DNA from: Candidatus Saccharimonadota bacterium
Lineage (GTDB): Bacteria > Patescibacteriota > Gracilibacteria > BD1-5 > UBA6164
Direction: 5' to 3'
Length of the DNA: 32,000 nt
Assembly: GCA_004563595.2 (NCBI GenBank)
Contig: CP042461.1
Location: 900,001-932,000 of the forward strand
This document shows positions 1-32,000 of the stretch, in pieces. The number at the start of each line of letters is the position of its first letter. Position 1 is the first letter of the stretch. The notes under the pieces are model-generated. The model made no database searches. It saw only the letters and a list, made by a program, of their open reading frames with translations, and had not been told where the DNA came from. Position numbers and translations under genes: made by a program.

Positions 1-2304
1 ATAGGAGATAATTATTGACCTCAAACTGAATGAATATTATCAACTTGAATTACGTTCTTATTTCTCATACTTAATACGGTATTTTGAGTTGTTACTTCCC
101 TTCTCTATAAATCAAGAACCATATTGTTATTCTCATTTATTTTTGCTTATATCAACCCTCTTATTATCTGATGAAGCTCAGAAACTCCGTATACTCTTTT
201 ATGATACTCAATGATTGTATCACTTTGAGCATTATTTATAGGAATCAAACAAAATGATATTATACTCAAATACTCTGCGTTTATATTATGAAACTTATTA
301 TTTTTAATCGCTCCATTTGGTTGAGAAATAGAATGGATTACAAAGCTTCTTTCTAGTGGTTTTTTATGATTCATAAGCATAATTTCTCTTTATAAAAAGA
401 ACCCTGAAACTATTGTAAGTATTTTTGTACTTAATTATATATTCATAATATTACTTCTTATTTCTGGCTCTGATATATCTATATTATGAGGGAGTATGAG
501 CTTTATAAGTTATATGACATCAATACTTCTCTTCTTTTGAATATGAGTATGGTTATTCACCCTTCAAGCTATCAAGTCTATTACTCCTCTTTTATTATTT
601 CCTATACTGATAGTAATTTGACTTATTTTCTCAGGAAGTGTATTTTTCATAGCTCCTGCTATTGCGATTCTTGTTCTAACGTATCTGATATGATTTCAAT
701 TTCTGGAATCTTTCCTTACTCCAGTTTTTAAATATTTCTTCTTCTGAATTCTTGGTTGATTTATTTTACTCTCAAACTCATATCTCTCATTTCATTTAGT
801 AGATATAAGTTTCTCAAGTTTTATCACTGTTGTAATAGTATCATTTGTATTTATGTTTACATCATATTATTTATCAAGAAAAGAAAAATTAGAGTTCTTA
901 TATAGTATCTGAACCTTATGATGAATATTAACTCTCGCTCCTCTTTTAGTAGTATGAACTCATGATAATACTCTTTCTCAAGGCTTTGAAACACTTTCTA
1001 TTCTTTCTGTTCTCATATTTGCAATAGCAAACCTCGCTCTTCCTTTTGTAAATAAAACTCTTATAGAAAAAACAAGTAATGTAAAAAACCTTGTTACATG
1101 AAGTATCTTTGGGGTACTCTTTATATGATTTGAGTTATTTCGTTACTGAAATGAATACTTCCCTGGTATCAGCCTCTGATTTGCTTTTGCATGATTAGCA
1201 ATTCTATATTTTATTCTCAGTTATCTTATCCTAACTCAGCTTGGAATACAAAATATCAAAAAAGAATGAGCTTCAAAAAATACAGTTCTTTCATATCTAT
1301 TTATTTCAATCTCTCTCTTCTCTCTTGCTGTTTCACTTGTATTCTCATGACACGCTGAAATTATCTCAACAGTTTGGTTATTTGAAGCAACAATTCTCTT
1401 TTACTTCTATTCCAAAACAAAAGAAATAAAAATCTTTTCAGTTTGAATTATACTTTTTATGATTTGAATTATTAAGCTATTTGAGCTTCAAAATATTGTA
1501 CAAAAATGAGATTTTATATTCTTGATTCCATTTACCATTATATTCAGCTCACTTGTATGGAATATTAAATTCCTAGACTTTGTAAAAGACGGGGCACAAA
1601 GATATATTCATGATATCTTTCATATACTTTGAATCTGAGTATTATGAGCATTATTGTTAGAGATTATTCCAAGTACATGACATGGTTGGAGCATTCTAGG
1701 CATCAGTTCATTCTTACTCATCATTTGAACTGTCTATGCGTATTTCAGTTCAAAGCTTTTAAAAATATTTTTCATAGTAGCAATATCATTATTCACATTT
1801 GGACACTTTGAAGATTCTTCTCGTATTATGAATAACATTGATCGTGATGAGATCTGATATTTAAGAATATTACAATATATCTCAACAATACTAATAGCAT
1901 CTATAATTTATATTTGGCATAAATTTAATACTGAAAAACTTCTTGCAAATATATTAAAAATATTTATATCACTCTATATATTGGCTATTGTTTCATTCTA
2001 TATACATGACATATTTAACACTACCTTTGCTATCACAATATTCTGGTGACTCATTGCTTCTGGGTTATTACTTCACTGAATATCAAAAGATACAAAAAAA
2101 CTGAGAACCATTTGATTATATCTTCTCACACTCGTACTTGCTAAGATATTCTTCTATGACCTCTGGTATGGTCTGGATGACGCTGTAACAAGAGTTGTTG
2201 CATTTATGGTTATATGAGTATTACTGATCATTATTTCAACTCAGTACTCAAAGAAATATGGAAATAACTTATTAGGAGAGCTTCATTATAAGAATTTGGA
2301 TTAA
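1..2304 (+). CDS. Large polytopic integral membrane protein, function unknown (5' end lies outside the window)
   Basis: Frame 1 is open from nt 1 to TAA at 2302-2304 (768 codons) when TGA is sense; I count 42 in-frame TGA and no TAA/TAG. The translation is a long series of hydrophobic helices, e.g. FWGLIASGLLLHGISKDTKKLRTIGLYLLTLVLAKIFFYDLWYGLDDAVTRVVAFMVIGVLLIIISTQY. A terminator hairpin follows directly. Confidence 0.8.
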
Positions 2305-2339
2305 AAAAAGTACTGAGATAATATCTCAGTACTTTTTTG
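2304..2339 (+). terminator. Rho-independent terminator after the membrane protein gene
   Basis: Perfect 11-bp stem agtactgagat (2309-2319) / atctcagtact (2323-2333) with a 3-nt loop, flanked by an A-run and a T-run (ttttttg). Confidence 0.8.
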
Positions 2340-2701
2340 TTATTAGGTTAGTTATAGAACATTTTTTTTTAAAATGGAACTAAAATAAATGATAAAGTTA
2401 TAAGTCATATAATATGTATAAATGAAAATACATATTTTAAATATTCATCATTTGTTTTTAAGGTTTTATAAAACAATATGGAGCTTGTATTAATTAATCA
2501 GATAGTTAATGTAACTCCAATAAAAAGCGTTATAAAATAGTTATGTGTTGCTCATTTCGTCATATAATATACAAAAATTCATAAAAAGAAAAATAAGACC
2601 GATAATGTATATATTCTGAGGTTTATATTTTTCATAACTAAATTCTTAATAACTAAAATCTTAACTAGACGATATATATGAGTATAATAAAGTCAAATTT
2701 T

Positions 2702-3901
2702 TTATTTTAACTTCCCTATCACTTCAAAAAACTTATCTATCTCCTCTTTTGTGTTATACAAATATAAACTTGCTCTTACACTATGAGCATGTCAGTATTT
2801 TTCAAAAAGTGGTTGAGCGCAATGTTTTCATGACCTGACCGCAATATGATTTTCAGCTAGGATTTCTGCTACATCATGAGAATGTTGACTATCAATAACA
2901 AATGAAAATACCGAGACTCTGTTTTCTGGCTTATCAGATCCAAGAATATGGAAATAATCATATTGCTTTGCTTTTTCTAAAAAGTAGTTTGTTAATTGAT
3001 CTTCTACTGCTTCAAGTACTTCAAATCATCAAACACTATCAATATATTCAAACGCTTTGAGTAAACTATATGCTCCAGTTACATTTGGAGTTCCTGGTTC
3101 ATATTTATCTGGTAAACCTGCTGAAGAGAAACTATCTGAGGCTACATTTGAAATAGCTCAACCTCCAGAAAAAACACAATCCATCGATTCGAGTAATTCT
3201 TCCCTTCCCCATAAAACTCCTATACCAGAATCAGCAAAAACTTTATGTCATGTAAAGAATAGGAAATCACAATTTATTTTTTGTACATCAACTTTCATGT
3301 GTGGAACACTTTGAGAAGCATCTACTACAAAGAGAGTATCTTCTCTTTTAAGTTTTCCGACTTGTTCGAGATCAAACACTTGCCCTGTTACATTTGAAAC
3401 ATGAGTAAGAGAAATAACTTTTACGGATTCATCATATTTTGATTTAAAATCTTCCATATCTAAATTGAAATCTTCATCAACAGTAACATAATCTATTTCT
3501 ATACCTATTTCTTCTTTTAGAATCAACCAAGGGACAATATTTGCATGATGTTCAACAATAGAAACAAGAACTTTATCTCATTTTTTTAGTTTCTTATTTC
3601 TTCTCAAAGTTTGAGTCAATAGATTAATAGCATAGGTTGAATTAAATGTATAAATCACTTCTTTATATGAGTTTGCATTTAATACATCACATACCTTTTC
3701 TTTTGATTGTTTATAATAAATTTCAGAGGTTTGCGCAATGTCATACATTCATCTATGGATGTTTGAATAACTATTCTCTAAATATTCTCTTATCCCATCA
3801 ATTACATACTTTGGTTTTTGGCTGGTAGCTGTAGAATCAAAGAAGATTAAATCTGGATTATTTTGAAATATCGGAAAGTCTTTTTTAAAATCTGTTGTCA
3901 T
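2702..3901 (-). CDS. sufS: Cysteine desulfurase, SufS/CsdA-type class V aminotransferase
   Basis: 399-aa ORF under table 25, ATG 3899-3901 to TAA 2702-2704, with no in-frame TAA/TAG. Motifs: FFDSTATSQKP, NIHRG (G = TGA at 3749-3751), PLP-lysine context FFT-G-HK, and active-site Cys context VRS-G-KHCAQP. Confidence 0.9.
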
Positions 3902-3940
3902 ATCTTTTATTATAAATAATTACAAGAGTATTATATAAAA

Positions 3941-4063: not shown

Positions 4064-4549
4064 ATGATATTTACAACTGTAAATTTCGGACGCTACGAAA
4101 ATAAAAATAAAACTTTACCGCAAATTCTTTTTGATGATGCTGATTGGTTCTTTTACCAATATGAACGAAATCATTTTAAAGGAGCTTTAGCTAACGAATC
4201 TGAATATCTATACCATAGGGCAAGAAATATTTGTATTCCAAAAGAACACCCAGACAATTGGAAGGTAGAATACATGCAGCAACACCCCTCACAAAAATTT
4301 GCTTCTATGATGATCGTACAATTAAGCAAACCTAATCATGAAGGAATAAGTAAGGCTACATATATGGATAGAATCGATATGCGTTTTCCAAAATCTATAG
4401 GTGATTACGATAAACTCGGATATCAACTGTTTATAAAAAATATGAAACATTGTATTTTTGGATCTACAACAATACGTATGACCAAAAAAAAATGTGAGGA
4501 CTTCTTTCGAGATGACTCAAAATTTTTTCTATGATCTACTTTCTCATAG
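4064..4549 (+). CDS. Hypothetical protein, UGA-free ORF; the standard-code stop TGA at 4532-4534 would be read through to TAG at 4547-4549 under table 25
   Basis: 156-aa standard-code ORF with all 6 Gly encoded by GGN and no internal TGA. Classic AGGAG at 4053-4057, 6 nt before the ATG. Under table 25 the terminal TGA adds G-S-T-F-S before TAG. The N-terminal FGRYENKNKTLPQILFDDADWFFYQYE weakly recalls DUF3820-type FGKYKGKTL motifs (low confidence). A strong terminator follows. Confidence 0.65.
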
Positions 4550-4634: not shown

Positions 4635-6689
4635 TTATACTTTCACCTGCCTCTTCTTCAAAACCTTCGCAAGTACAATAGTAATAATAAATAATATGGC
4701 TGCGAAATAGAGCATTGTAATATCAATATCACTAATAGCTTGGCTAAATGATTCTATTTTTTGATTATGAAACGCTGATCAGGCAATAACAAATACTGAA
4801 GCTCATGGGATTATTCAGATAAGAGTAGCAAGGAAGAATCCTTTAAAGTTAATCCTTAAGAATCATGAAATATAGTTTACAAGATCAAATGGAAAAAATA
4901 ATAATCTCGTCATAAGGATCGTCATAAATGGAGATTCATTTGCTTTACTCTTTAAATCATCTACCAGTCATCCATGTGAATCTGGTCAGATAATTTTTTT
5001 CCCAAAAACAGTTCATAAGAAATAGGCAAATGCTGCACTCATATTTTCCCCCACTAATGTGAAAGCAATTCATAACCAAGGACCAAACAATGCACCAGAC
5101 ATAAATGTCATCAAAGTAGCTGGGAATAATACTACTGGTCTAATTGCATAAAAAAGTATGTATATAAATGGCCCAATTGCCATGTTTCCAGATATAAAAT
5201 TATAGATATTTATCGCGATTTGCTCCACATCTAAATTGTTCATCTTTTTATAATAAAAAAATGAAAATATAATTATGAACCAGATAGTGGCTGTTACGAC
5301 TTGGAGTATATTATCTTTGATATAATATTTTGCTTCGTTTTTTATATTCCCCAAAGTATGAATCACAAAACTATCACATACTTTTTTGATGAGTTCTGCT
5401 TTGGTAGGATATGCAAAAATAGTTTTAGAAATCTTATATGCTGAGATATTATTCTCCATTGCTGAAACAAGTATAGGTAACATTTCTCATGCTTTCGTTC
5501 AAGCAATAGTGGCTCATAAAATCTTTCAACTTACTCTTTTAAAATTAATTTTTACAAATCAAACTTCATCATCAGTAAGTTTGCTTCTATCATTTCCTGA
5601 AAAATACAGTGTCTTTGTTACAATATCATCCTTTGAATAATATTTTAATAATTCTGTTCATGTCTTTCATACTCTTGCTATCTCTGTATTTGTATATAAC
5701 ACAGCTGGTAAAACCGACTTTTTTACTGATTTTTTTAAAAATGGAACTAATATGTTTCTTATTACACCTCTTCATTCATTATTTGCAAGGTGAGTAAATT
5801 GAGGATTTCACTTCACACAATCTCATATAGCATATATATTTTTTGAGGATGTTCTGTTAAATTTATCTATAGTTATCCCCTTCTGATCAAACTTTATATT
5901 CGCATTTTTCATATCTAATCCATTCACATTTGCCCCTCTTCATAATGCAATCAAAACTTTATCAAAAGGAATTTTTCTTTCTTTCTTTCAATCCTTATCC
6001 AGAATAACAAGCTCTTTTCATTCAGCTCTCAGAGCAGTTGTATTCTTGCATATTTTTATTCATTTACTTTCAAATATTTTTTCAAGTAATTCTGAAGACT
6101 TTCCTTCTTCTCTTGGGATAAGATTCTTATTTCTTTGGAGAATAGTTACATTGACATTACTATTTGCAAATGATTCTGCAAGCTCACATCCAATATATCC
6201 TCAACCAATAATAACTAATTCTTTTATATTTTCCTCAAGTTCAAATACATTTTCATTTGTAAAAATATCTTTTTTATCGAGTCCTTCAATAGGAACTATA
6301 TTTGCATGTGATCAAGTAGAGATAACAATATTTTTCGCTGTAATTTCTTTTTCTCCATCTATGAGAACTGTATTTTTATCTTTAAAACTGGCAAATCAAC
6401 TGATAACTTTCATTCCATATTTTTCTAATTTTTCTTTTGTCTCTTCATCTCTGATTACTTGCCTTCTTTTTCGTACTTCTTCTAAGACTCATTTTATATC
6501 TTTGTGATGTCCTTTTTTTGCAATATCAATAAAAGCTTTTGATGGCACACATCAAAAGTTAGTACAGTCCCCTCAAAAAAATCATTTTTCTATTAATGCA
6601 ACTTTCTTTCATGCTCATGCAAGTCATATAGAAACTGTGAGTCATCCTGATCCAGATCATATTACTATTACATCATAATCAAATTTCAT
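4635..6689 (-). CDS. Fusion protein: N-terminal FAD-dependent pyridine nucleotide-disulfide oxidoreductase (dihydrolipoamide dehydrogenase/mercuric reductase-like) plus C-terminal DedA/TVP38 (SNARE-associated) membrane domain
   Basis: 684-aa ORF (ATG 6687-6689, TAA 4635-4637), checked codon by codon for absence of TAA/TAG. N-terminus: MKFDYDVIVIGSGSGGLTVSI (FAD fold), redox-active disulfide GGDCTNFGCVPSK, NAD fold LVIIGGGYIGCELAE, and dimerisation region ILGATIAGTKAGEMLPILVSAMENNISAYKISKTIFAYPTKAE. This runs directly into TM helices and the DedA-like YAIRPVVLFPATLMTFMSGALFGPWLG. The junction lies inside standard-code ORF 5070-5483, so the fusion is not a recoding artefact. Confidence 0.85.
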
Positions 6690-6846: not shown

Positions 6847-9081
6847 ATGAATATGAAAAAACAAGCATTTACTATTATCGAGCTTATAGTTGCTATTACA
6901 ATAATGGCTATTATATCAATAATAGCATTTATCTCTCTCCAATGATATTCCAAAAATGCTCGTGATTCAGTGAGGCAATCTGATATTGCACAAATTACCT
7001 CTGTAATGTGATTGTACGAAAAACAAGTATGAAGGTTTCCAAAACCAACCGAATGAGTAGATATAACATATAGTTGAGCACAAGTTTGGAACCAATGAAC
7101 TATTTGAGATAGCGTAATACTAAATTTATGAGATTTTAATCAAAAGCCTGTTGATCCCCTTACCTGATCAGAATATACATATTCAAGACTTAATACAAAA
7201 AGTGAATATGAAGTAGCTGCTGTAATGGAGTGATGAATATCACAAAATATATTAACAGGAAATACATACGCAGAGTGAAACATAACCTGATATACCTATA
7301 TAAGATGAAATTATAATAAAATACTTGCAAAAGTGAATACTTGATCTATTACTTATGTTTTAGGAGTCCCTACTATTATTTCATGAGATATAACGCTAAG
7401 AGATATAATTTCACTTATGCAATCTTCATCTCTCGTGTATAATGGCTCATCTAATTTACCAGCAAGTTATATATGAACTAGGTTCAACTCAAGTTGAAAT
7501 GGTGGATGATTTACATTTAATCCATGAAATATTGTAGCCTATACATGAACTACTGAATCTCTTAGTGATATAGATAATCAAGTGACATTGTTCAATAATT
7601 TACAAACAATTTATACAGCTACTGATGTAGTAAATAATAATGGTATTATTACAAAAATAGTTGATGCAGATGATTGAACTGTAGAAGAAAAGATATTAGC
7701 GAGTATAATAGTAAAGCAACATATTAATTCTTGAATAGAATTATATACGGATACGTGACCTGTATACTTTGTAAGTTCTATCACAACAAACGCATCAGGG
7801 AAATCATATTGAGAATCCATTATTTATGATTCTTCTTGATATATATATATAACAGGTTTGTACAAGTGAGATGTAACAATTTGAACTGATACATATTCTA
7901 GTGCTTGAAATTACGATATATTCTTAGCAAAATTTGATTCTAGTTGAAATTATATATGGAGTCAATCAGCTTGATGAACCGGGAAAGATGTCCCTTATAT
8001 GTTAAATATAGATTCCAGTGATAATTTGTATTTAATATGAAGATTCTCAGATTGAAGTCCTGATATTTTTTGAACAACATTTACTAACTCATGAGATTAT
8101 GACATATTTTTAACAAAATTTGATTCTGATTGAAATGTATTAATCAATAAAAAGTGAGGTTGAACTTGAAATGATAGACCAAAAGGGATAGTAATTTGAA
8201 ATGATTGATCTGTGTATATAACATGACAATATGACTGAACTGCTGATATTTTTTGAATGTCTATCAGCTCTCCTGACGCAAATCCTGATAGTTTTGTAGT
8301 GAAGTTAGATAATACATTAACAAGCACATGGGTCCAAAATGCAAACTCAATTTGAATTGATTGGTGAAATACTATTGCTATAGAGGATATAACTTGAGAC
8401 CTATATATAGCTTGATCTTTTTCAGATAATATGACTTTATATTGAGCCGCTATCACTACTTATTGACAAGGTGATTCATACCTACTTAAAATGAATAATT
8501 CAGGGGTATTACAATGGATAAATACTTCTTGATGAGTATGATATGAAGAGTCTGAACACGTAATCATTGATAATAACTGAGATATTTTTTTTACAGGGTG
8601 GTTTAGATGAATCTCTGCAACACTATTTTGAGAAGTTGTAAGTTCACCAGATAATGGTAGTCGTAATGATACCTATGTTTCAAAATTAACGAGTAATGGT
8701 GTCCTTGTATGGAATAGTATTTGAAAATGACCCGGAAATGATTATGGGCAAAAACTTGCACTAGATAATGATTGAAATATATATTCAGTTTGATCTGTTT
8801 GATTATGAGAAAATAGTTTATTTGGAAAAACTGTCACGACATCGGTAGATGGGGTTACCTATGTAAGCAAGCTTGACTCTAATTGAAATGCTCTCTGGAG
8901 TAAGTTATATTGAGAACATAAAATTAGAGATGATTATTCGGATATAAAGTTTGATGGAACAAGTCTATATCTAGTATGAGGATACGAATGAACATCAACG
9001 GTTGCGTGACAAAGTCTTACAGCTATTTGATCAAATGAAGCATTTTTTGGTAAAATAAACGCGGATTGAAATATTGAATAG
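6847..9081 (+). CDS. Giant type IV pilin/pseudopilin-like protein with a C-terminal beta-propeller-repeat (SBBP-like) domain
   Basis: 744-aa ORF (ATG 6847, TAG 9079-9081), frame checked throughout. N-terminus MNMKKQA|FTIIELIVAITIMAIISIIAFISLQGYSKNARDS is a prepilin-type leader plus hydrophobic helix with Glu at +5. Also a pilin-like QKPVDPLTGSEYTY. The C-terminal two thirds carry repeated units of the type FLAKFDSSGNYIWSQSAGGTGKDVPYMLNIDSSDNLYLIG, FLTKFDSDGNVL, VSKLTSNGVLVW, LDNDGNIYSVG and VSKLDSNGNALW, in which many of the Gly are TGA. Confidence 0.85.
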
Positions 9082-9091: not shown

Positions 9092-9124
9092 AAAAAAAAG
9101 CTAGAGTATATCTAGCTTTTTTAT
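9092..9124. terminator. Bidirectional terminator shared by convergent genes
   Basis: aaaaaaaagctaga-gtata-tctagctttttt: stem gctaga (9100-9105) / tctagc (9111-9116) flanked by an A-run and a T-run. The TAG stop of the minus-strand ORF (9101-9103) lies inside the stem. Confidence 0.7.
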
Positions 9125-9493
9125 TTTATAATAATTTTCTACTTTTATAAAAAAGTCTGAAATTACCTTATTATTTTTTTGAGCCTTGTTTTCAACAGCA
9201 TTGTGTTTCCAATACATTAAAGCCCCCTCACTAAAATCATTGTGCTGTAATATTTTATTACTAACAAACACTATTACTTTCTCTTCTCCTAATTTTATAA
9301 CAATATTATCCCTTATAGAAAAGGAAAGATTATCAATAACACAAAGCTTTGATGATTTACCACATTTTTTATCTTCAGCATGTTTTATCAAAGAAGATAT
9401 GACGTTTGCGTTCTCAACTCCATAATAAATTTGTGTTTTTATTGTAGAACAAGAAACAATTAAGCTTAATAAAAATATCAGAGAAATTCTCAT
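9101..9493 (-). CDS. Small putative lipoprotein, hypothetical (UGA-free)
   Basis: 130-aa ORF intact in both codes. Signal peptide with lipobox MRISLIFLLSLIVSC. All 4 Gly are GGN. SD-like AAAGGA lies 8 nt upstream of the ATG (GG at 9503-9504). Confidence 0.6.
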   Translation of the reverse strand: MRISLIFLLSLIVSCSTIKTQIYYGVENANVISSLIKHAEDKKCGKSSKLCVIDNLSFSIRDNIVIKLGEEKVIVFVSNKILQHNDFSEGALMYWKHNAVENKAQKNNKVISDFFIKVENYYKIKKLDIL

Positions 9494-9561: not shown

Positions 9562-9596
9562 AAAAAAAGACGAGATTTCAAATCTCGTCTTTTTTT
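9562..9596 (-). terminator. Rho-independent terminator of the trx-ccdA-msrAB operon
   Basis: Perfect 10-bp stem agacgagatt (9568-9577) / aatctcgtct (9581-9590). On the minus strand it directly follows the msrAB TAA and is followed by a T-run. Confidence 0.85.
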
Positions 9597-10689
9597 ATTC
9601 TTCAAACATCTTCACATATTCTCAATACCCTTCTCCTTCTAAATCTTCATCAGCTATAAATTTCAGAGCAGCTGAGTTAATACAGTATCTGAGTCATCAT
9701 TGATCAGATGGTCAGTCTGAGAAAACATGTCAGAGATGGGAATCTGCTTTTTCGGACCTGACTTCAGTTCTTGTCATAAAAAACTTTGTATCCTCTACTT
9801 CTTCTATGTTTACTTTATCAATAGGCTTCGAAAAACTTGGCCAACCAGATCATGAGTCATATTTATCTTTTGATGAGAACAATGGGGTCCCATCAACTAT
9901 GTCTACATAAATTCCTGCTTCTTTATTATCATTGTATTCATTATCAAAAGCTCTCTCAGTTGCATTTTCCTGAGTCACTCTATATTGAAGGTCTGTGAGT
10001 CTTTCTTTTAAACTTTCCTTATCATTTTTTGTTTCTACTTTTTTTGCAGAATCTCACCATGTATCTTCTATATATCCTTCCCTTCATGATCATTTTGCAT
10101 AGATTTTATATTTCAAGGCAGATTTCTGTGCGTAATCTTGATGGTACTCTTCTGCTTTATAAAAAGCAGTAAATGGAAGTATTTCAGTTACTATTTTTTC
10201 ATCATACTTTCATGAGTCGTCTAATATCTTTTTTGAATTTTCTAAAATTTCTTTCTCTTCAGGAGTATTATAGTACATCGCTGTTGTGTAGTGAAAACCT
10301 CTATCAGCAAATTGTCATCCTGCATCTGTTGGATCTATTTGCTTCCAGAATAAAGAAACGAGATCTTCATAGTTTACAATTTCTGGATCAAAAACTACTT
10401 TTACTCATTCTCTATGTTTTGTATTTCAAGATGAAACTTCTCAGTATGTGGCAGTTTCTTCTGTTCATCATAGGTATCAGCTTGTTGCTTCGATAACACC
10501 ATCTTGAGCATCCATTATTCACTCAATACACCAGAAACAACCTCAGGCTATGTATAATTCTCTTGCATTTTCTGTTTCCATAGTTTTTTTTGTTATATCT
10601 TCTACCTTTTCCCCATTATTCACATGAACAAAAGCAGAAACTAAAATTATAGTTGCAACAATTCCTAGAACTGTTCATATAGTTTTCAT
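9595..10689 (-). CDS. msrAB: Membrane-anchored/secreted peptide methionine sulfoxide reductase MsrA-MsrB fusion
   Basis: 364-aa ORF, no in-frame TAA/TAG. N-terminal TM/signal [21 protein letters not shown]. MsrA motifs: AGGCFWCIEG, SGYLGGTEETATY, HREGVKVVFDP. MsrB motifs: [20 protein letters not shown] (G = TGA at 9730-9732), [10 protein letters not shown]. Confidence 0.93.
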
Positions 10690-10691
10690 AA

Positions 10692-11488: not shown

Positions 11489-11498
11489 TGAAGAGGTA

Positions 11499-21179: not shown

Positions 21180-21203
21180 GAAGTTTTGTAGTATTTTTTT
21201 GTT

Positions 21204-21230
21204 TTAAAAAACTCCCTTGGTTGAGGGAGT
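21204..21230 (-). terminator. Rho-independent terminator separating the hypothetical gene from the A2M gene
   Basis: Stem actccct (21211-21217) / agggagt (21224-21230) with loop tggttg, followed on the minus strand by TTTTT. It starts 8 nt after the stop at 21238. Confidence 0.75.
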
Positions 21231-21237
21231 TCAAATC

Positions 21238-22065: not shown

Positions 22066-22090
22066 AACAATATTTATTATCTAGTAAAAT

Positions 22091-22114
22091 AAGGGTGAGT
22101 TTAAACTCACCCTT
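22091..22114 (-). terminator. Terminator hairpin after the amidase-domain gene
   Basis: Perfect 10-bp stem aagggtgagt (22091-22100) / actcaccctt (22105-22114) with loop ttaa, followed on the minus strand by ATTTTA (modest U-tract). Confidence 0.65.
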
Positions 22115-22134
22115 GTAAAAGTCAAGCAACTATC

Positions 22135-22821
22135 TTAGTTACGATAAAATGTTGGTCTATACACATGAAACACTGTATATGTTTGATTAATTGACTGTAA
22201 TGTAACATTTTTCTGTGAAGAATGACCATCACTATTTTGGTAGCTTACCTTGATGCCACTATATGAATTATATAGCTTATCAGTCACTATCATAGAATGA
22301 TCAATATGCCCATTTCCTGACCAATCAGCAAAAATAACATCACCCTCTTCAACTTTTGAAGTATTCAAGTATTGCGTTGAACTATCTTTGGTTATAAAAT
22401 CAAAGTGCATCCCCCAATATGAATTTGAGTTACTTTTTGCATAAGTGTAGAGTTCATGAGCACCAGCCCATGCATAACCTCGTGATGATGGAGTATTATA
22501 ATACCAACAATAATCACACCCTTTATCTCTATCTGCCATATAATAGCCACGCTTATTATATACATAGTTCTTGTCAGAATTATCTACCAAACCAGCTAAA
22601 ACTGCTTGACTAACAAAGTTAGTACAGTTTCCACCATATGATTGATACTCTGGAAATGCAGTACTAGTTTTTGCATAATTCAATGCATACTGTACTGCTG
22701 GAGTACTGGAATAAGTACAAACCCCCTTAGCATAGTCACCACATGAGCTTGAACTCGCAGACATAGCTACACTTGAAAAAAATGAAGCTAGTACAATCAA
22801 AACAACAAAAATTTGTCGCAT
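22135..22821 (-). CDS. Secreted putative cell-wall amidase (Amidase_6 / NlpC-P60-like papain-fold domain), UGA-free
   Basis: The ORF is uninterrupted in the standard code. Preferred start is ATG at 22819-22821 (MRQIFVVLIVLASFFSSVAMSA signal peptide); the stop is TAA. Motifs: AVQYALNYA ... YGGNCTNFVSQAVLAG (Cys nucleophile context) and GHIDHSMIV (His). All 15 Gly are GGN and none is TGA. Trp is TGG. The sequence is visibly less AT-rich than its neighbours. SD-like AAGGAAAAG lies upstream of the ATG. Confidence 0.8.
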   Translation of the reverse strand: MRQIFVVLIVLASFFSSVAMSASSSSCGDYAKGVCTYSSTPAVQYALNYAKTSTAFPEYQSYGGNCTNFVSQAVLAGLVDNSDKNYVYNKRGYYMADRDKGCDYCWYYNTPSSRGYAWAGAHELYTYAKSNSNSYWGMHFDFITKDSSTQYLNTSKVEEGDVIFADWSGNGHIDHSMIVTDKLYNSYSGIKVSYQNSDGHSSQKNVTLQSINQTYTVFHVYRPTFYRN

Positions 22822-23149
22822 TTTTCTTTTCCTTTTGTTTGTGTTTTTACTTCCAACCTTGAAAGCACACAAAATATATGAAAAAACTTTTCTTTTACAA
22901 ATTTATTCTCGACTTTCTTCTCTATTTTAAGCCATTTTAACTTTTCAAGACATTCATTATAATGACAAGACATTAACAGGACATTAACAAAAATAATTTT
23001 CTATTTTTAAATGTTAAAAACTTAATTTTCATCCCTTTAAATTCTGATTTTTATTTTCATATTTTTAAAAAATATTTTTTTATCTTCTCTATATTGATAA
23101 TTCAGGTCATTTCTATACAATCAATATATAATCTTCTCATCAGAAAAAA

Positions 23150-25144
23150 ATGAAAAAAATAAAATTACTCCTCATCTTTATTCCTCTCCTGTTAATTTTC
23201 ACATCAATACTCTCATTAAAAATCAACCTTCCCACACCTTCTACTATTATATATGACAGTCACGATATTGAAATAGGAGAAATTATACAAGATGAAAAAA
23301 CAAGACATAGACCGATAAAAATTGAAGATATCCCTGAGTTCACAAAACAAGTTATAATAACTCTTGAGGATAAATCATTTTACTCAAATATTTGAATAGA
23401 TTTTAAAGCTATAGCAAGATCACTGTATAATAATATTTCTTCATGAAAAATAGTTGAATGAGCATCAACTCTCTCAACTCAAGTAATTAGAAATAATTTT
23501 TGGCTTAATAAAAAAAGAAGTTATTCCAGAAAAATATCTGAATTTTATCTCGCTCTTATTTTAAATACAAAATATTCAAAAGATGAAATACTCGAAAATT
23601 ATCTCAATAGAATATATTTTTGAAATCTTAACTACTGAATAGAATCAGCTTCACAATATTATTTCGGCAAAACATTACAGAACCTAACAAAAGCTGAGCA
23701 AATTGCTCTTCTTATTATTCCAAAAAATTCAAGCAAGTATTCTCCAAATAAACCAAGCTTCAGAGTACGTTTTGAAAAGGTAGTAAACTATTTGCAAGAT
23801 AACTGAGTTTTATCAGCAAATGAAGCAAGAAATATCCTCAATGAAAAATTAGATTTTAATTATGAATCTAATGCTACTCTTCCCTATATTGTTGATTATA
23901 TTCAAGCAAATAAGCTAGAAAAAGAAAGTAATATAAAAACAAGTATAGATTATTACCTCACAAAAGAGATTGAAAAACTGGCTCTGGATACTGTTTCAAG
24001 TCTATTTTGGAAAGATGTATGAGATTATTGAGTCTTAGTTGTTGATAGAAAAACAAATGAAATAAAAATAATGATATGATGAATAGATTATTATTTAGAA
24101 AATGGGCAAGTAAATTCAACAACAGCTCTTAGGCAAGCTTGATCAACTATAAAACCTTTTACCTATATACTAGCATTTCAAGAACTTTGATATAAACCAA
24201 GCTCAACCATAATAGACCTCCCTATACAGTTTTCCACTGCTGAAGGAAATACTTATAGCCCAAAAAACTACTCACTTGATTATAAATGAGAAGTAACATT
24301 AGCAGAAGCACTCAGCCAAAGTATCAATATTCCAGCCGTAAAACTTACAAATGAAATCTGACTCACAAGATTATACGATTTTTTAAAGTCACTTAACTTT
24401 TCTACCCTTAATGAAGATCCAGAATATTACTGACTTGCGTTAACTCTCGGAGTGTGAGAAATGAAATTAATAGAACTATTAGAAGCCTATACTATATTTG
24501 CTCATGAGTGAAGTATATGTAAGTTTACTATACTCTCTGATTCTGAAAATATTTGTGATCATAAAATAGAAAAAAAATATACTGATATGGTTAATGAAAT
24601 ACTTACAAATAGGTATTTTAAACTTGGATGATTCCCTATTCATTCAAATCTTGATTTTCCAGACAGAAACGTATTTGTAAAAACATGAACTTCAAGAAAT
24701 TTTAGAGATAATTGGTCAATATGATTTACAGATAATTATATGATCTGAGTTTGGGTATGAAACAAAGATGGGACATACATGAAATGAGTTTCTTGAACCA
24801 GTTGAGCTGGAGATATATTTAGGAAAATTGTATACTTGCTCGAAAAAGAAGATCAAGATACAAATGCTATAATATATGATTCATCTGAATTAGAATACTT
24901 AGATATTATATCTCCACTTGATGGAAGTATTTACAAGCAAGGTATAATACAACAAAGAAACCAAGTAAAACTTGGTTTCAAAACAAATATAAATTTTAAT
25001 AATTATGCTTGGGAAGTGAATTGAAAATTATATGATGCAGATTTTTTAGATTTAGAAGCCTGAAATCATGACATAAAAATTAGTATATTTCAGAACTGAA
25101 AATTAATAGGATCTGAGAGTTCGAGAATAGTAGTTGAGGAATAA
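23150..25144 (+). CDS. pbpC: Penicillin-binding protein 1C (bifunctional GT51 transglycosylase / transpeptidase with PbpC-type C-terminal domain)
   Basis: 664-aa ORF, frame 2 checked line by line. TM anchor MKKIKLLLIFIPLLLIF. GT51 motifs EDKSFYSNIGID, GASTLSTQVIRN, RKISE, KDEILENYLNRIYFG. Transpeptidase motifs RQAGSTIKPF (SxxK), SQSINIPAV (SxN), KTGTSRNFRDNW (G = TGA at 24686-24688). C-terminal LDIISPLDGSIY-type domain. Confidence 0.92.
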
Positions 25145-25190
25145 GGGGAGAGGATTCAGGAGAGAGGTATCTATTCAAATGTATACTATT

Positions 25191-26063
25191 CTATTCCCTA
25201 CTATCACAATATGGATCTAAATGAATCATCACATTCCGAGTAAAATTTTTATTAATTTTTGGAATGGCATATTCCACATGATCTGAAATCCTATGTGCAT
25301 CAATGAGCTTTATTTCAGGAGTAAATACTAAGTGAATTTCTACAAACTTTCTGTGCCCTGATTGCCTAGTTTTTAATTCATGATATGAAGTGATCAAAGC
25401 TTGTTTATCTATTATTTTAATAATTTGATCTATTTCTTCTTTATCCAAAGATATATCAAGCAACAATCAATATCACTTCTTTATGAGATCAAATGCTGAA
25501 TAAATAATATACAATGATATTATAATTCATAAAATCGCATCAATAATATAAAATCATGAAAAATGAATGATAACAAGTCATAGTAAGATAACAAGATTAC
25601 TGTACAGGTCTGTTTTATAATGAAGTGAATCTGCATGAATTACGATATTTTCAGTTTGTTTTGCTACCTTTTCTAAAAAATATACTAAAAATCAGGTAAT
25701 AATAACTGATATTATCATCACTCAGATAGAGTAGCTTAAGTACTCTACTTTCTCATTTCCTATAAGCTTTAAAACTGCTGTATAAAAAATAAAAAAACCT
25801 GAAAAAGTAATGATTAATCATTCAAATAGTGCAGCTAACGCTTCTATTTTCCCCCTTCAATAATTAAAAATCCCATCCTCTTTTTTTTCTGAACTTGAAA
25901 CTGCAAAATAATTAAATAATGACACGAATAAATCAAGCAATGAATCTATTGCAGATGATAATACAGCTATTGAACCACTTAAAATTCATATTGCAAACTT
26001 CATAACGAGGAGTAAAAATGCAACAACAGATGAAATAAGAGTGGCCTTTTTTTGTAGTGACAT
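25191..26063 (-). CDS. Cation diffusion facilitator (CDF) family divalent metal efflux transporter
   Basis: 290-aa ORF (ATG 26061-26063, TAG 25191-25193). TM region with SGSIAVLSSAIDSLLDL, FNYGRGKIEALAAL and HADSLHYKTDL. C-terminal cytoplasmic domain YHELKTRQSGHRKFVEIHLVF ... AHRISDHVE. Confidence 0.88.
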
Positions 26064-26113
26064 AGTTATGCTTATGAAATATTGTAACAAGTATAATTGT
26101 AAATCATTAAAAT

Positions 26114-26147
26114 ACAAAAAAACTGAGCTTTCGCTCAGTTTTTTTTA
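26114..26147 (-). terminator. Rho-independent terminator of der
   Basis: Stem aactgagc (26121-26128) / gctcagtt (26133-26140) with loop tttc, between an A-run and a T-run. It begins at the der stop codon and lies upstream of the CDF gene start. Confidence 0.8.
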
Positions 26148-27521
26148 TTTCACTACATCAACATGTTTCCCTCTTCATTTATACTCAATTGTAATTGGAG
26201 TTCCAAAGAATCCGAAATTATCTCTGATTTTATTTTCAAGATATCTTTTATATGAAAAATGAAAATGATTTGGATTATTTACTGTCAGTACAAACTTTGG
26301 TGGATTTACGTCTGCTTGAGTTCAGTAATATATTTTTGGATTATGTGATTTTTTATTTCAAGTTGGTGGATGTTTATAAATAACTTGCTCCATGAAGTTA
26401 TTAAAAATTCAAGTTTTTACTCTTTTAAAACGTTCTTTTTTAATTTCTTCTGCATTTTCTAAAATCTCATCAACTCTTTTTCTTTGCGTAGCTGATGTAA
26501 ACACAACAGATACCCATGGAAGAAACTCTATTTTACTCTTTAGGTAATCTACATACCTATTCATCATTTTTTCTTTATCTACTCCCGGTTTATCTAAAAC
26601 TTTATCCCATTTATTTACGACGATAACAAGTCATTTTTTTTCTTCAAGTACTTTTGAAATAATAGATAAGTCTTGATGTACAATACCATCAAAACCATCT
26701 ACAACTACAGCAATAACATCAGCTCTTGTAATTGCTCTATTGGTTCTCATTACTGACCAATCTTCTATATTTCTCACTCATACTTTTGAGAGCCTTCTTA
26801 CTCATGCTGTATCAATAAGTACAAAGTCTGATTCTTTAAATTTGAATTTTGTATCTATGCTATCTCTTGTTGTATGGTCCATATCTTGTACCATTACTCT
26901 ATTCTCTCAGACTATAGAGTTGATTAAACTTGATTTCCCTACATTTGGTCTTCATACCATTGCGAGTTTTACAAATGAATCATCAATTTCTTCATGTTCA
27001 TAATTCAGTCCTTTTTTAGTTAAGAAATCTGCAACAAATCTTTTGATATCTTTCATCCCTGTATTATGAGATACAGAAACTGGGAAAAATGCTAAATTAT
27101 CTCCGTATCCAGCATGTGAATACGCTTCCATAATTTTGCTTTCGTTATCTGCTTTATTAGCGACAAGAATAACATCAGAAATATTCTTTTCTCTGATTAC
27201 TTTTAATACTTGTTCATCAAGTTCAGTGATTCTATCATATTCAATAATCCATATGAGTAAATCACTTGATTCAATTGATTTTTCTGTTCTCTCTGCAATA
27301 TCTTTTGTGATTTCATCTGTTTTTGAGCTAAAATCTAGCCCACCTGAATCTGATAATATATATGTTAAATTATTATCTTCATCATTGTACTCATATTCAG
27401 AAATATCTCTTGTTGTCCCTTCTTCATCAGCGACAATTGCGATTTTATGTCCTGAATACATATTGAAAAAACTTGATTTCCCTACATTTGGTCTTCAAAT
27501 TATAGTTACTTTTGCTAACAC
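26145..27521 (-). CDS. der: Ribosome-associated GTPase Der (EngA), two tandem GTP-binding domains plus KH-like C-terminus
   Basis: 458-aa ORF, frame checked. No ATG after the upstream in-frame TAA, so GTG at 27519-27521 is used. GD1 P-loop [14 protein letters not shown] (G = TGA at 27495-27497), DSGG, NKAD. GD2 [23 protein letters not shown]-terminal [23 protein letters not shown]. Confidence 0.92.
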
Positions 27522-27604
27522 GTGTTGATTGGTTTAAGAATTTAAATTTTTTTTGACTGTCTGAGTATATTGATTTTTCAAAAAAAACAAGTTTTAGTAA
27601 GAAC

Positions 27605-28519
27605 CTAAAACTTCCCTGTTTTTTTCAAAAATAAATATACCATGAACATTATTGCAACACTTCAGAGTAAAAGTATATAGACAAAATCTGGAGTAGTCCA
27701 GGTTGGAAGTTCTATATTCATTCAGTAAAAACTGGTAATGAGTGTAAGTGGTAATAAAAAAGCTGAAAAAATAGCTAATACTTTTAAAACAAAATTTGTT
27801 TTAATATCAATCATAGCTTTAAATGCATCTTCAACACTATCAATATATTCTGCTAATATATCTATATCACTTAATATTTGATCTAATTTATCTTCCAAAT
27901 CTTCAAAATATACTTCCATTTCTCACGCATATAACTCATTCACTATATGTTCAAGTTGTTTCAATAAAGCAACTTGTGGTTTAAACATATGTTTGAGTAC
28001 AACTATATTTCTTTTTTTGATCATTATCTCTTTCACCAATGAAGAATTTCATTTTTCAAAAACTTTTTTTTCTAAATTTTTAATGTCTAATTTGATATTT
28101 TTTATCATATTAAACATTTTCTCAAGCATAGCTTGAGTGATTTCATATAATATATATCCAGTTGATATTTTTAATTTTTTTGATTCTCATGATACCTTCT
28201 TCTCTCAATAATTTTCAAAAACTTTATTAATTCTTGAAAAAGGAAATTCTCTAAATGTTATTAAAAAATCTTTACTTAAAAACATATTAAACTCATTCAG
28301 TTCATATACTTTTGTTGCTCTATTATATTTTGGATAATGATATACAACAAAGGTATAATCATCATATTTATCAACTCTTGCTCTTTGGTTTCCTTCTAAA
28401 CAAGCTTCTAAATCAAGTTCATGGATCTTATACTTTTCAAGAGTCTTCACAATATCTTTATCAGATAACCCAACCCCATCTATCCAGTGAATTCCGTTTA
28501 TTTTTTGTTTTTTTAGCAT
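27605..28519 (-). CDS. corA: CorA-family magnesium/cobalt transporter
   Basis: 304-aa ORF (ATG 28517-28519, TAG 27605-27607). Signature LLPLTLITSFYGMN, in which the G of GMN is TGA at 27722-27724. Two C-terminal TM helices ending KKTGKF. Confidence 0.9.
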
Positions 28520-28658
28520 ACCCACAAATTTACAAGCTATAATATTAAAACAGTTTATATTACAAATGAGTTTTGTAAAGATTTTCCTCTAAAAAATTGC
28601 ATTTTTTTGATATTATCCTAATATGATAATGTTTTCAACGTCAAAGAAGGAAAGTACC

Positions 28659-28898
28659 ATGAAAAAAGGTAACTTTAATAATGATCTAGAAAATATACAA
28701 AAGTGCTCAGAAGAAATTGTAAATGATATTCTTTCCAAAATCATGAAAGGAGACCTTAACCAAATTCCTAAATTAAAGTCATTTACAGAAGATGAATTAA
28801 CTGAGTTAACTAGACTTTTTAAGTCAAGTACACCAGATAGACAAGTCAAACCAATACCTATTCAATTTCGACTTATCCATCATCATCCAAAAAATTAA
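28659..28898 (+). CDS. Small hypothetical protein (79 aa from ATG 28659; an in-frame upstream ATG at 28623 would give 91 aa)
   Basis: The ORF ends at TAA 28896-28898 and has no TAA/TAG/TGA inside. AAGGAAAG lies 7 nt before ATG 28659. A clean terminator hairpin follows. No recognisable domain. Confidence 0.5.
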   Translation: MKKGNFNNDLENIQKCSEEIVNDILSKIMKGDLNQIPKLKSFTEDELTELTRLFKSSTPDRQVKPIPIQFRLIHHHPKN

Positions 28899-28924
28899 AA
28901 CAAAACAAATTAAGGACACAAAAG

Positions 28925-28950
28925 AATCCCCAAATAAATGGGGATTTTTG
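28925..28950. terminator. Terminator between convergent genes
   Basis: Stem aatcccca (28925-28932) / tggggatt (28939-28946) with loop aataaa, followed by a T-run. Confidence 0.8.
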
Positions 28951-28971
28951 TTTTATAAAATTTTTCTTGTC

Positions 28972-30858
28972 TTAATTTTGTTGAGTATATTCAGTTCAAA
29001 CAGCCCCATGAGGAACATTATTCTTCTTTCATCAATCTACTATTACGTGACTCGCTAAACTAAATGATGATGTTGTATAATGTATGGCAACTCTTCAACC
29101 TCATCCTCATCATCCACTATTTCCTGGATATGTAGCATGATAATATGCATTTCATCCATTTGCATAAATATACCCTGTTCATGATATATCTCAGGCTTCT
29201 ATCCATACACTTCATCAAGAACCTCATCATCCCGCTCTTCTTTGTGTACTTCACATCGTTCATGTTCAATCTGCTCAGTTTGTAGTTATAACCCCATCCA
29301 AAACCATACTTCAAGCTATATGTAATTGAATTGCTCATCCTCCTTTTCATCCATAACTCCAGTTTCATCATCCACTTCATATATCTATTGGCTCAGTTGA
29401 ACTTCCGTAAGATGGTCATCATGCAGCCGAAAATCCTGATGCTCAAGCTCATCCATATCCTCATCCTCATCCAGTATAATACCAGGTTGGTCCTGATTCA
29501 TATACATAATATACTCAATTTCCAGGTCATGTACCTTTATTATATCACCCAAAATCAGCATTTATATATCAACCTGATTCTAAAGTCATACTTGAAGCAA
29601 CAATATTAACAATATTTACTTTTGAAGTTGTGTTAGGTACATGTATTATGGTACCATTTGACTTAACAGTTATATCTCAAATCATTGTTAATTCAGATAG
29701 TCATGATAGCTGAAGAGTAGTTGCATTCGTTCATCATATTTCTAAAGAATAGACTTCAACTCATCATGTAGTATCAAGACTAATAGTTGCATTTGCATCA
29801 ATAGTTACTGCGTCTGATGATGTTGGTAACCTTCATAGATCCCAATTGGCAGTATTTGACCAACTTGTACTTGCTCCTCAAGTCCAAACAATAGGAGTCG
29901 GTGGAATACAAGCATCTCATACTGATTTAACAAATCAAGTATTACATTTCCAACTACATCCTGCAGTTGCTGATATATCGTAAGACCATGATTGGTCATC
30001 TGATGTAGCCGTTCAGTTGTAATATACTGCATTGCCTATACTTGGTTCTGCAGAACATGCATAAGATACAAGCTTTCCTCATAAGAGTAATACTGCAAAA
30101 TTTTCTAAATCGTTATTATCACCTAAGTTTACTCAAGAGAGATAATTGTATTCTCCAGCACTTAAATCAGTTGATCCACTATAAGCAGAGTGTAGGTTTG
30201 TTGTAAAATTTGCATAATTACCAGAAATATTACTTGTATTTACTCCTAAATCTTGCACTGTAAATAGAGTGTCATGTGTATCTACATGGAACGTTGATTC
30301 CGCAGATAAATCTGCACCATCAGCATGAAGTGAAGGTGATGCATAGTATTTGTTATCACCTCAAATAACATAAAAACCATTATATTGTCATACTACCTTT
30401 GGAAAAGTTGTTTCAGAGGCATAAGTAGAATTTGTGATATTATTTTGTTGTGTTACCTCAAAATCATACATAAGTTGATATTCCTTTTGATTCAAGGTTG
30501 TTGAGTAATTCATATATTTTCAAGTCAATGGGTCTTCTGGGATTTTTGATATCCTCCCAACTTGTGTTTGTATAGAAGTAGCTACTTCTCATGTATGCCA
30601 AAGGTTTGTTCCTGATGCTGTTACGAGTGTTGATGAGTCTGGAAGAGGGTACTTACCATACTTAATCACATGTAATTCTAATACATTTTTAATTGATTGC
30701 ATATCAACTATTCTTGTAGAGTTTCTGGCTAATTTACTATATCATTGAAGTGATATAAAAGCGATTGTTCATAAAATAGCCAAAATAGTAATTGTAACGA
30801 TCAATTCAACAAGGGTAAAAGCTTTAGTAGATCGATATGTTTTTTCAAGTATGTTCAT
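28972..30858 (-). CDS. Giant type IV pilin/pseudopilin-like protein with a glycine-rich (beta-helix-like) C-terminal domain
   Basis: 628-aa ORF (ATG 30856-30858, TAA 28972-28974), every triplet checked. N-terminus MNILEKTYRSTKA|FTLVELIVTITILAILGTIAFISLQGYSKLARNS is paralogous to the 6847 gene. Also KIPEDPLTGKYMNY. The C-terminal third has YYTGGGGGYGGAGASGFSAAGGPSYGS, GSGGGNWSYGGKGGGAIQLHIAG, RRAGGGGSGGSVWIEAGDISGTGYIYANGGNA and GNSGGGGGGGRVAIHYT. Confidence 0.85.
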
Positions 30859-30973
30859 AATAGTGCTCTATATTATATTCTTAAAATACTCAAATCATGT
30901 TATAACAATTTGTACTAATTGCAAAAGTATTTCCTATAAATGATAGCTAAAGTATTATAAACAATAATAAAAT

Positions 30974-31022
30974 AAAAAGTAAAGAGTATTTGGCTTTAAC
31001 TTACCAAATACTCTTTACTTTT
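30974..31022 (-). terminator. Rho-independent terminator of aspS
   Basis: 16-bp perfect stem agtaaagagtatttgg (30978-30993) / ccaaatactctttact (31004-31019) with a 10-nt loop. The minus strand continues TTTTTATTTT. Confidence 0.85.
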
Positions 31023-31042
31023 CATGAAGATATGTTGAGATA

Positions 31043-32000
31043 TTATTCCTCTTCTTGAATAACTTCAATATGAAGTTCTGTTAATTGTTCATCATCTATA
31101 AATGAAGGCGCATTCATCATAGCATCTTGACCTTTTCATGATTTAGGAAAAGCATATACTTCCCTAATATTATGTTCATCCTTGAGAATCATCATAAATC
31201 TATCCATTCAGATAGCAAATCATCCATGTGGAGGAACTCCATATTGAAATGCTTCATACATAGCTCCAAATTTCTCTTGTACTTCTTCTTTTGTTCTTCC
31301 TACTGTTTCAAAAGCTTTTACAAGACTTTCAATATCATGATTACGGATTGAACCTGATAATATTTCATACCCGTTACAAGCAAGATCATATTGAACTGAT
31401 TTTACATCTAACAGATTTTCTTCATTAAATGCTTCTACTCAACCTTTTGGCATAGAGAATGGATTATGTCCAAAATCTATTTTTCCTGTTATTTCATTTT
31501 CTTCAAACATTGGGAAGTCTGTTACCCAACAAAATGCAAGTAAGTCTTTTGAAGCAAGATCCATGAGTTCTGCTAAGTGGATTCTAAATCTTCCCATATA
31601 ATCACAGACTAAATCTTTTTCTCAAGCTCAGAAGAATACTACATCTCAAACTTCAAGCTTTGTAACATTTACTATTTCTTGTAAATCAGCTTCTGTAAAG
31701 AATTTATTGAGAGGTCCTTTTAATCCATCTTCTTTCATTTGAAAATATCCAAGTCCTTTTGCTCCAAATTTTCTTACATAATTTTCAAATCCTTTCATTT
31801 GAGTTTTTGAAAATACATTATCTCCATTTGGAACTCTAATAGCTTTGATTCTGTTTGTTGTTTTATCACTTGCAATAGAAGAAAAAATTTCATTTGTACT
31901 TTTTGCAAAGATATCAATCACATCTACTAATTCTAATCCATATCTTAAATCTGGCTTATCTGAACCATATTTTTCCATTGCATCAGCATAACTCATAGAA
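31043..32000 (-). CDS. aspS: Aspartyl-tRNA synthetase, C-terminal part (5' end outside the window)
   Basis: Open minus-strand frame from 32000 to TAA 31043-31045. [32 protein letters not shown] with both Gly as TGA (31628-31630, 31622-31624), aligning with E. coli [30 protein letters not shown], and class II motif 3 region [17 protein letters not shown]. Confidence 0.93.

Follow-up and report, generated by a model that had tools for sequence, protein, structure and literature searches.

Glycine reading of UGA in a chromosomal segment of Gracilibacteria bacterium 28_42_T64, and an amidase gene that avoids the codon

The window considered here is a stretch of 32,000 nucleotides, positions 900,001 to 932,000 of CP042461, from the chromosome of Candidatus Gracilibacteria bacterium 28_42_T64, a BD1-5 bacterium within the candidate phyla radiation (CPR). 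It is almost certainly translated with genetic code 25 (table 25), in which UGA specifies glycine and the stops are UAA and UAG alone, as an earlier note made from the letters of this DNA had proposed. This is already known biology rather than new biology: the code with UGA as glycine was described by Campbell et al. 2013 and by Rinke et al. 2013 (both cited in PMC8629427), it has been established in Gracilibacteria since 2013-2014, and the 2019 publication of the genome itself already used code 25. Among the 22 genes of the window, numbered here from left to right, g15 encodes a secreted amidase and avoids the reassigned codon, and it has TGA-free orthologues in other recoded genomes.

Open reading frames in the window

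Under the standard code (table 11) the window breaks up into the mosaic of short fragments that the note had described. From greedy, non-overlapping sets of open reading frames (ORFs) of at least 100 amino acids, with coverage computed per code over the window, table 11 yields 25 ORFs (mean 135 amino acids, longest 255) that cover 32% of the sequence, whereas frames ended by TAA and TAG only number 22, average 464 amino acids, reach 2171 codons and cover 96% of it. Calling the genes again with TGA as a stop and as sense, which the note had suggested as a check, thus gives results that are far from equal. Once the ORFs are cut back to start codons, the 22 resulting genes have a coding density of 93.7%. 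When TAG or TAA is taken as sense instead, the longest ORFs stay at 256-288 amino acids, and because neither substitution rescues the frames, the effect belongs to TGA alone. Shuffling the window 100 times gave no ORF free of TAA and TAG above 195 codons, as against about 2170 observed. The 22 genes contain 430 in-frame TGA codons (4.3% of codons) and no in-frame TAA or TAG; 17 end at TAA and 5 at TAG, in keeping with the statement that every gene stops at one of these two triplets.

The gene count has to be revised, given that the note had listed 19 genes where we find 22, and public gene calls across 12135-32000 agree one for one with ours. Its uninterrupted frames of 2165, 744, 684, 664 and 628 codons are exact, and the one given as 768 has 767 codons, being open at the start of the window. 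A plus-strand ORF at 10669-11442 was discarded as spurious: it has no start codon, and the true gene lies on the minus strand at 10692-11423.

The window has a GC content of 28.6%. In its genes, GGN codons make up 3.1% of codons alone and 7.4% together with TGA, and TGG makes up 0.79% alone and 5.0% together with TGA. A tryptophan content of 5.0% would be implausible, and the composition therefore points to glycine. On that reading UGA is the commonest glycine codon, with 430 occurrences against 313 for all GGN codons.

Residues opposite TGA in homologous proteins

Every TGA was masked as X before homology searches, so that no residue was assumed at these positions. Pfam domains run continuously over the masked sites; Aminotran_5 is matched over 1-371 of 371 positions across eight TGAs, and CorA over 3-292 of 292. 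The residue opposite each TGA was read from the best homologue of solved structure in the Protein Data Bank (PDB) for eight proteins. The chains whose source we recognise (E. coli YiiP, human ABCA3 and a Pseudomonas AspRS) come from standard-code organisms, as presumably do the others. In the eight proteins pooled, Gly stands opposite 49 of 83 aligned TGA positions and Trp opposite one (P = 1e-33 for a glycine background of 7.5%). The comparison with homologues that the note had recommended thus finds the TGA columns enriched for Gly, and not for Trp or random residues.

The agreement is closest in the ABC transporter ATPase g11 (12905-13813, plus strand, 302 amino acids, 10 TGA), where TGA falls on Gly at 9 of 10 positions of PDB 7w01, including both Walker A glycines (13010-12 and 13025-27) and both glycines of LSGG (13313-18). 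The class A penicillin-binding protein (PBP) g16, with transglycosylase and transpeptidase domains (23150-25144, plus strand, 664 amino acids, 28 TGA), has Gly at 14 of 17 aligned positions of PDB 4oon, among them those of GGSTI, GSxxKP and KTG (24686-88). In the SufS-type cysteine desulfurase g3 (2702-3901, minus strand, 399 amino acids, 8 TGA, matched by Aminotran_5), the count is 5 of 7 for PDB 1t3i, with HRG (3749-51) and RSGHHC. The MsrA-MsrB fusion g8 (9595-10689, minus strand, 364 amino acids, 20 TGA) has 9 of 17 for PDB 7e43, in DSGxGWPSF, HLGHVF (9730-32) and GGLRY, and the Trp of its GWPSF motif is encoded by TGG. The Der/EngA GTPase g18 (26145-27521, minus strand, 458 amino acids, 10 TGA) has 4 of 9, with both P-loop glycines of GRPNVGKS and that of DTAG; since the gene begins with a GTG at 27521, it includes the P-loop TGA at 27495-97, which is upstream of the first ATG. 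In the CorA Mg2+ channel g19 (27605-28519, minus strand, 304 amino acids, 6 TGA) the count is 2 of 6, and the Gly of GMN (27722-24) is one of the two. The AspRS gene g22 (31043-31996, minus strand) is the C-terminal part of a public call of 594 amino acids that extends beyond the window end, and 4 of its 7 aligned TGAs fall on Gly of PDB 4wj3. The cation diffusion facilitator g17 (25191-26063, minus strand, 290 amino acids), compared with PDB 2qfi, is the most mixed, its 10 TGAs facing 2 Gly, 3 Ala, 1 Trp and other residues. All nine motif positions that the note had named, the pair in AspRS at 31622-24 and 31628-30 included, are in-frame TGAs. Its claim that they sit on invariant glycines stands, also for the first TGA of the AspRS motif that it had written FFGAG, except at the second TGA of that motif, which faces Asp (FFGAD).

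A deeper alignment could be made for g5 (4635-6689, minus strand, 684 amino acids, 34 TGA), a fusion of a pyridine-nucleotide-disulfide oxidoreductase with a VTT/DedA domain. Out of 106 full-length relatives, the tally was restricted to 18 distant ones (less than 45% identity, normal Trp content). Gly occupies 71.6% of the residues at the 34 TGA columns and 4.6% at other columns; at 27 of the 34 it outnumbers every other residue (with a strict majority at 26), and Trp does so at none. Counted by codon, TGA corresponds to Gly with a frequency of 0.72, equal to or above that of GGA, GGG and GGT, and TGG corresponds to Trp with 0.78, which bears out the note's observation that conserved Trp is encoded by TGG. 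The single CGA in a well-aligned column faces Arg in 16 of the 18 homologues. UGG as Trp and UAA and UAG as stops are thus retained here, and so, it appears, is CGA as Arg. At the protein level, the proteomics of another BD1-5 member found 97 peptides unique to UGA as glycine, 3 unique to tryptophan and none unique to a stop (Hanke et al. 2014, PMC4032931).

Several points weigh against the glycine reading or limit it. At about 40% of the aligned TGA positions the single best homologue has a residue other than Gly, in one case Trp; these are mostly variable sites or sites of small residues. There is no tRNA gene in the window or in the 6.9 kb past its right end, and no release-factor gene in view. 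A low level of dual reading of UGA would be compatible with the sequence data. Finally, g15 avoids TGA, so that the note's wording, UGA as glycine across the whole window, admits of an exception as to usage, although not as to meaning.

Source of the window and earlier annotation

The note had predicted a source of the SR1 or Gracilibacteria type, and the proteins place it exactly. Outside its 34 masked positions g5 is identical to the NCBI 'FAD-binding protein' of Candidatus Gracilibacteria bacterium 28_42_T64, encoded on a contig of 1,343,103 bp, and g15 is 100% identical to NCBI A9Q91_04280 of the same organism. At the nucleotide level, ENA contig ERZ510998 NODE_17 and a Logan contig each match the window at 19,866 of 19,866 bases. 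The 28_42_T64 genome is closed, with 1.343 Mb and 28.87% GC, and comes from an oil-degrading enrichment (BD1-5; Sieber et al. 2019, PMC6851277; CP042461).

The NCBI record of g5 has G at all 34 TGAs, and the public record is therefore already in table 25. The warning that any standard-code annotation of this DNA would be wrong is sound in principle, but it applies to metagenome catalogues and not to the NCBI record of this genome. On a related JGI contig (L124), for example, table-11 fragments of 30-90 amino acids are found among the gene calls. The consequences for annotation are large, given that table 11 loses two thirds of the coding sequence and table 4 turns each UGA-encoded Gly into Trp.

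Candidate decoding machinery

In the proposed mechanism, a dedicated tRNA whose anticodon is UCA would read UGA, its glycine identity set (G1:C72, C2:G71, G3:C70 and U73) would lead to its charging by glycyl-tRNA synthetase, and release factor 2, which otherwise terminates at UGA, would have been lost. The tRNA and the loss are both suggested by related genomes and by the literature, where a tRNA of glycine identity with anticodon UCA, together with the loss of release factor 2, is the accepted mechanism (PMC8629427). For 28_42_T64 itself, genes were predicted with code 25, and 33 tRNA genes and prfA were reported, with prfB not detected (PMC6851277).

We scanned a genome collection with a pattern for the 3' half of this type of tRNA, made up of the anticodon UCA, the T-arm and C70-G71-C72-U73, and ran ARAGORN on the loci. 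At least 120 loci were found, of which at least 58 have an ARAGORN tRNA(tca), and at least 54 fall into two families. Among the matches listed, the first family, of 74 nt, comes from metagenome-assembled genomes (MAGs) labelled Absconditabacterales or 'Candidatus Peribacteria', and the second, which is 79 nt long, has its CCA encoded and shows an unusual D-arm, from MAGs labelled Gracilibacteria. Both form a class-I cloverleaf with a 7-bp acceptor stem, a short variable loop and the acceptor end GCG...CGC-U; given this fold and stem length, neither is tRNA-Sec. Nearly all of these genes, at least 54 in number, lie in DNA whose ORFs expand greatly once TGA is read as sense, and the recoded contigs labelled 'Peribacteria' seem to have been assigned to the wrong taxon. 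CP042461 itself is absent among the matches listed. What the scan shows is the UGA decoder of the lineage, through MAGs of Gracilibacteria and Absconditabacterales, and not that of this genome.

Genes for tRNA(UCA) with the same Gly-type GCG...CGC-U end were also called by ARAGORN on contigs of 50-67% GC, namely L036 (an Akkermansia MAG), L077 (an Archangium MAG), L112 and L093. The Akkermansia and Archangium lineages use the standard code. These high-GC genes could be UGA-suppressor variants of tRNA-Gly or, for L093, reflect a misread anticodon.

Alternative readings of UGA

Tryptophan is the other amino acid that UGA could specify, as in table 4, which is used by Mycoplasmatales/Entomoplasmatales and several AT-rich insect endosymbionts and with which the low GC content of the window would fit. 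Tables 4 and 25 give identical gene boundaries, so the rescue of the ORFs by TGA as sense is the same for both. One TGA of g17 is aligned to a Trp of E. coli YiiP, and W stands at the TGA columns in 82 of 106 full-length relatives of g5 from the public protein catalogue. These 82 proteins have a Trp content of 2-5%, and their W falls where Gly is otherwise invariant, also in standard-code homologues; they are evidently code-25 genes that were called with table 4, and as mistranslations they do not speak for tryptophan. A tryptophan reading would further leave the genes with Gly at just 3.1% and Trp at 5.0% of residues, it is contradicted by 49 Gly for a single Trp opposite the aligned TGAs, and conserved Trp columns, that of GWPSF included, are already encoded by TGG. 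We regard UGA as tryptophan as very improbable in this window.

Two other explanations would leave UGA without a full reassignment. If it were read as selenocysteine, or by context-dependent readthrough, the ARAGORN default label of tRNA-SeC for the anticodon UCA would be welcome support. The number of UGAs is far above that of any selenoproteome, though, and their columns align to Gly and not to Cys. The tRNA(UCA) genes of the lineage, of class I and 74-79 nt long, are unlike tRNA-Sec, and an Rfam scan of the window returned no match and no SECIS, so that this explanation has only a very slight chance of being right. A standard-code genome that is decaying, pseudogenised or error-ridden, in which the TGAs would be true premature stops, could account for the breakage of each long gene under table 11. 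Such decay would hardly spare TAA and TAG, neither of which interrupts a single frame, nor place TGA at those glycines of catalytic motifs that are most conserved; moreover, the same DNA was assembled independently in the ENA and Logan data, and orthologues in many related genomes retain the same frames. Genome decay or sequencing error is, to us, vanishingly improbable, and glycine is the reading with which we proceed.

Comparison with known codes

With table 25 the window shares UGA on conserved Gly, UGG as Trp, UAA and UAG as the only stops, low GC, a source in Gracilibacteria and the heavy use of UGA for glycine, and the code itself shows no difference. Table 4 likewise combines UGA as a sense codon, the loss of release factor 2 and AT-rich genomes; it differs in the amino acid, Trp, and in the decoder, a tRNA-Trp(UCA) instead of the tRNA of Gly identity in table 25. 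A third code is found in the sister lineage Absconditabacteria, where CGA and CGG are Trp in addition to UGA as Gly, and for some Gracilibacteria CGG is predicted to be Trp (Shulgina and Eddy 2021, PMC8629427). The UGA reassignment is the same in that variant, and CGA and CGG are rare here too (8 and 1 in the window), but we see no sign of it: the one well-aligned CGA, in g5, mostly faces Arg as described above, and CGA exchanges with AGA, AGG and CGT among the orthologues of the amidase g15, which argues against a reassignment of CGA. The sole CGG of the window (25238, in g17) lies at a variable column and is uninformative.

An amidase gene without UGA

The share of glycine codons that are TGA varies by gene, from 75% in the pilin-like gene g6 to 26% in the AspRS gene (7 of 27, P = 8.5e-4) and none in g15. 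Cytoplasmic housekeeping enzymes tend to have lower shares, such as SufS with 8 of 22 and Der with 10 of 26 (9 of 24 from the first ATG) besides AspRS, and envelope or pilin-like genes higher ones, such as g6 with 70 of 93, g12 with 15 of 20 and g16 with 28 of 40.

The gene g15 (22135-22821, minus strand) encodes a protein of 228 amino acids with a signal peptide and an Amidase_6 domain (PF12671). None of its 15 glycine codons is TGA (P = 2.5e-6), its GC content is 34.6%, and its Arg codons are rich in CGN. Orthologues with 45-68% identity to each other, all TGA-free, are present in four other UGA-recoded genomes (L124 5350-6039, L125 1062-1769, L127 8001-8705 and L128 7827-8381), where TGA locally makes up 64-77% of Gly codons at L124, L127 and L128 and 21% on the short L125 contig. 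In the five amidase copies pooled, TGA accounts for 0 of 78 Gly codons, compared with 65% of 1431 in neighbouring genes, and CGN for 50% of Arg codons, compared with 6%. For other amino acids the codon use of the amidase is much nearer that of its neighbours, with TTG, AAG and CAG moderately raised. At conserved Gly columns GGA, GGT, GGG and GGC exchange freely, and TGA never appears. Given that GGA is one synonymous step from TGA, this turnover without TGA implies a long-term avoidance of the codon and not a recent arrival of the gene.

Recent horizontal transfer was accordingly rejected as the cause, since orthologues this diverged have turned over their Gly codons, yet without TGA. Codon bias due to high expression was rejected as well, because in the ribosomal protein genes at L128 TGA makes up 42% of Gly codons and CGN does not occur among the Arg codons. 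The third candidate to be dismissed was a prophage or mobile-element context: there are no flanking repeats, and the similarity to phage proteins and endolysins is weak (PHROG E = 0.005, and one phage match of 32% identity). Phages compatible with code 11, that is, TGA-free ones, have been predicted for Gracilibacteria and Absconditabacteria hosts (Liu et al. 2023, PMC10746230), and g15 resembles them in having no in-frame TGA and ending at TAA, so that its product would be the same under codes 11 and 25. It differs from them in being a single chromosomal gene between TGA-rich genes, in five genomes, without phage context.

Downstream of g15 lies g14 (21238-22065, minus strand, 275 amino acids), with a signal peptide, a C-terminal transmembrane segment, no Pfam match and TGA at 17 of 28 Gly codons. 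The two are separated by a terminator-like hairpin (22091-22114, minus strand; 10-bp stem with 5 G-C pairs), and g14 accompanies the amidase in the three closest genomes only. A standard-code homologue of the amidase (L126), of 46% identity, belongs to a genome of 56% GC, where it sits inside a low-GC island beside an unrelated neighbour gene. It is placed among the code-25 copies in a neighbour-joining tree that has no support values, a position that hints that the amidase gene may cross the code boundary.

A gene without UGA is, in a recoded genome, the rare gene that standard-code ribosomes would translate identically. On this basis g15 might be a lytic gene that moves across the code barrier or, more speculatively, a code-neutral effector, with the UGA-rich g14 working only in a recoded owner; we put this forward tentatively and consider it unlikely as it stands. 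Mobility across codes is our leading idea for g15, held tentatively. The reading as effector and immunity protein is speculative, and it is weakened by the pairing with g14 in the three closest genomes only and by the unrelated neighbour at L126. A literature search turned up no published account of a comparable chromosomal gene. The UGA-free amidase is relevant to the debate on whether recoding impedes gene flow (PMC8080830).

The amidase has company. Among 375 genes surveyed in 56 code-25 loci, a significant depletion in TGA was seen in 9, and all 9 have no TGA whatsoever; two are copies of the amidase, and the others are, by their sequences, putatively two BipA/TypA-like proteins, three secreted proteins, one desaturase-like protein and one small membrane protein. 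The TGA-free genes located include those of putative secreted proteins with a '...YPNP...' C-terminal tail like the sorting signals of Bacteroidota (L015 2-898, L067 359-1663 and L090 6072-7400), a putative fatty-acid-desaturase-like protein (L098 6623-7699), putative BipA/TypA-like GTPases (L043 3534-5375 and L122 5557-7515) and a putative secreted protein with TGA at none of 20 Gly codons (L128 10139-11029).

Other genes of the window

The largest gene, g13 (14623-21120, minus strand), encodes a bacterial alpha-2-macroglobulin (A2M) homologue of 2165 amino acids with 69 TGA, the domains MG2, A2M_BRD, A2M and bMG10, and a thioester-type motif, GCSEQ. It lies about 2 kb from the class A PBP gene g16, with the g15-g14 pair between them, an arrangement that in our view resembles the yfhM-pbpC pairing of E. 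coli. Giant A2M proteins likewise occur in Vampirococcus (PMC8080830).

Three consecutive minus-strand genes span 9595-12755. They are g10 (11499-12755, 418 amino acids, 15 TGA), which encodes a secreted protein with three thioredoxin repeats; g9r (10692-11423, 243 amino acids, 11 TGA), for a putative CcdA/DsbD-like membrane protein recognised by a CVLP motif alone; and the MsrA-MsrB fusion g8, which has a hydrophobic segment at its N-terminus. Judged from these features, they look like a module for the repair of methionine sulfoxide outside the cytoplasm.

In g5, FAD/NAD domains and a dimerisation domain are followed by the C-terminal VTT/DedA membrane domain, and about 100 full-length catalogue proteins have a similar length and the same Pfam domains. 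The ABC transporter ATPase g11 is followed by an ABC-2 permease, g12 (13825-14580, plus strand, 251 amino acids, 15 TGA). At the left end, g1 (1-2304, plus strand, 42 TGA, 20 GGN, stop TAA) encodes a DUF2339-like membrane protein whose 5' end is cut by the window.

The smaller genes are g2 (2369-2635, minus strand), for a membrane protein of 88 amino acids with 4 TGA; g4 (4064-4549, plus strand), hypothetical, of 161 amino acids, with 6 GGN and a single TGA six codons before its TAG stop; g7 (9101-9493, minus strand), hypothetical and lipoprotein-like, of 130 amino acids, with no TGA and 4 GGN; and g20 (28623-28898, plus strand), a small hypothetical gene with no TGA that is called publicly as 89 amino acids from 28629.

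Two large pilin-like proteins with an N-terminal methylation motif are encoded by g6 (6847-9081, plus strand, 744 amino acids, 70 TGA, 23 GGN, 12.5% Gly), in which most Gly is thus encoded by TGA, and by g21 (28972-30858, minus strand, 628 amino acids, 53 TGA, 41 GGN, 15% Gly). They match the pseudopilins of unusual size that have been noted for the genome of 28_42_T64 (PMC6851277).

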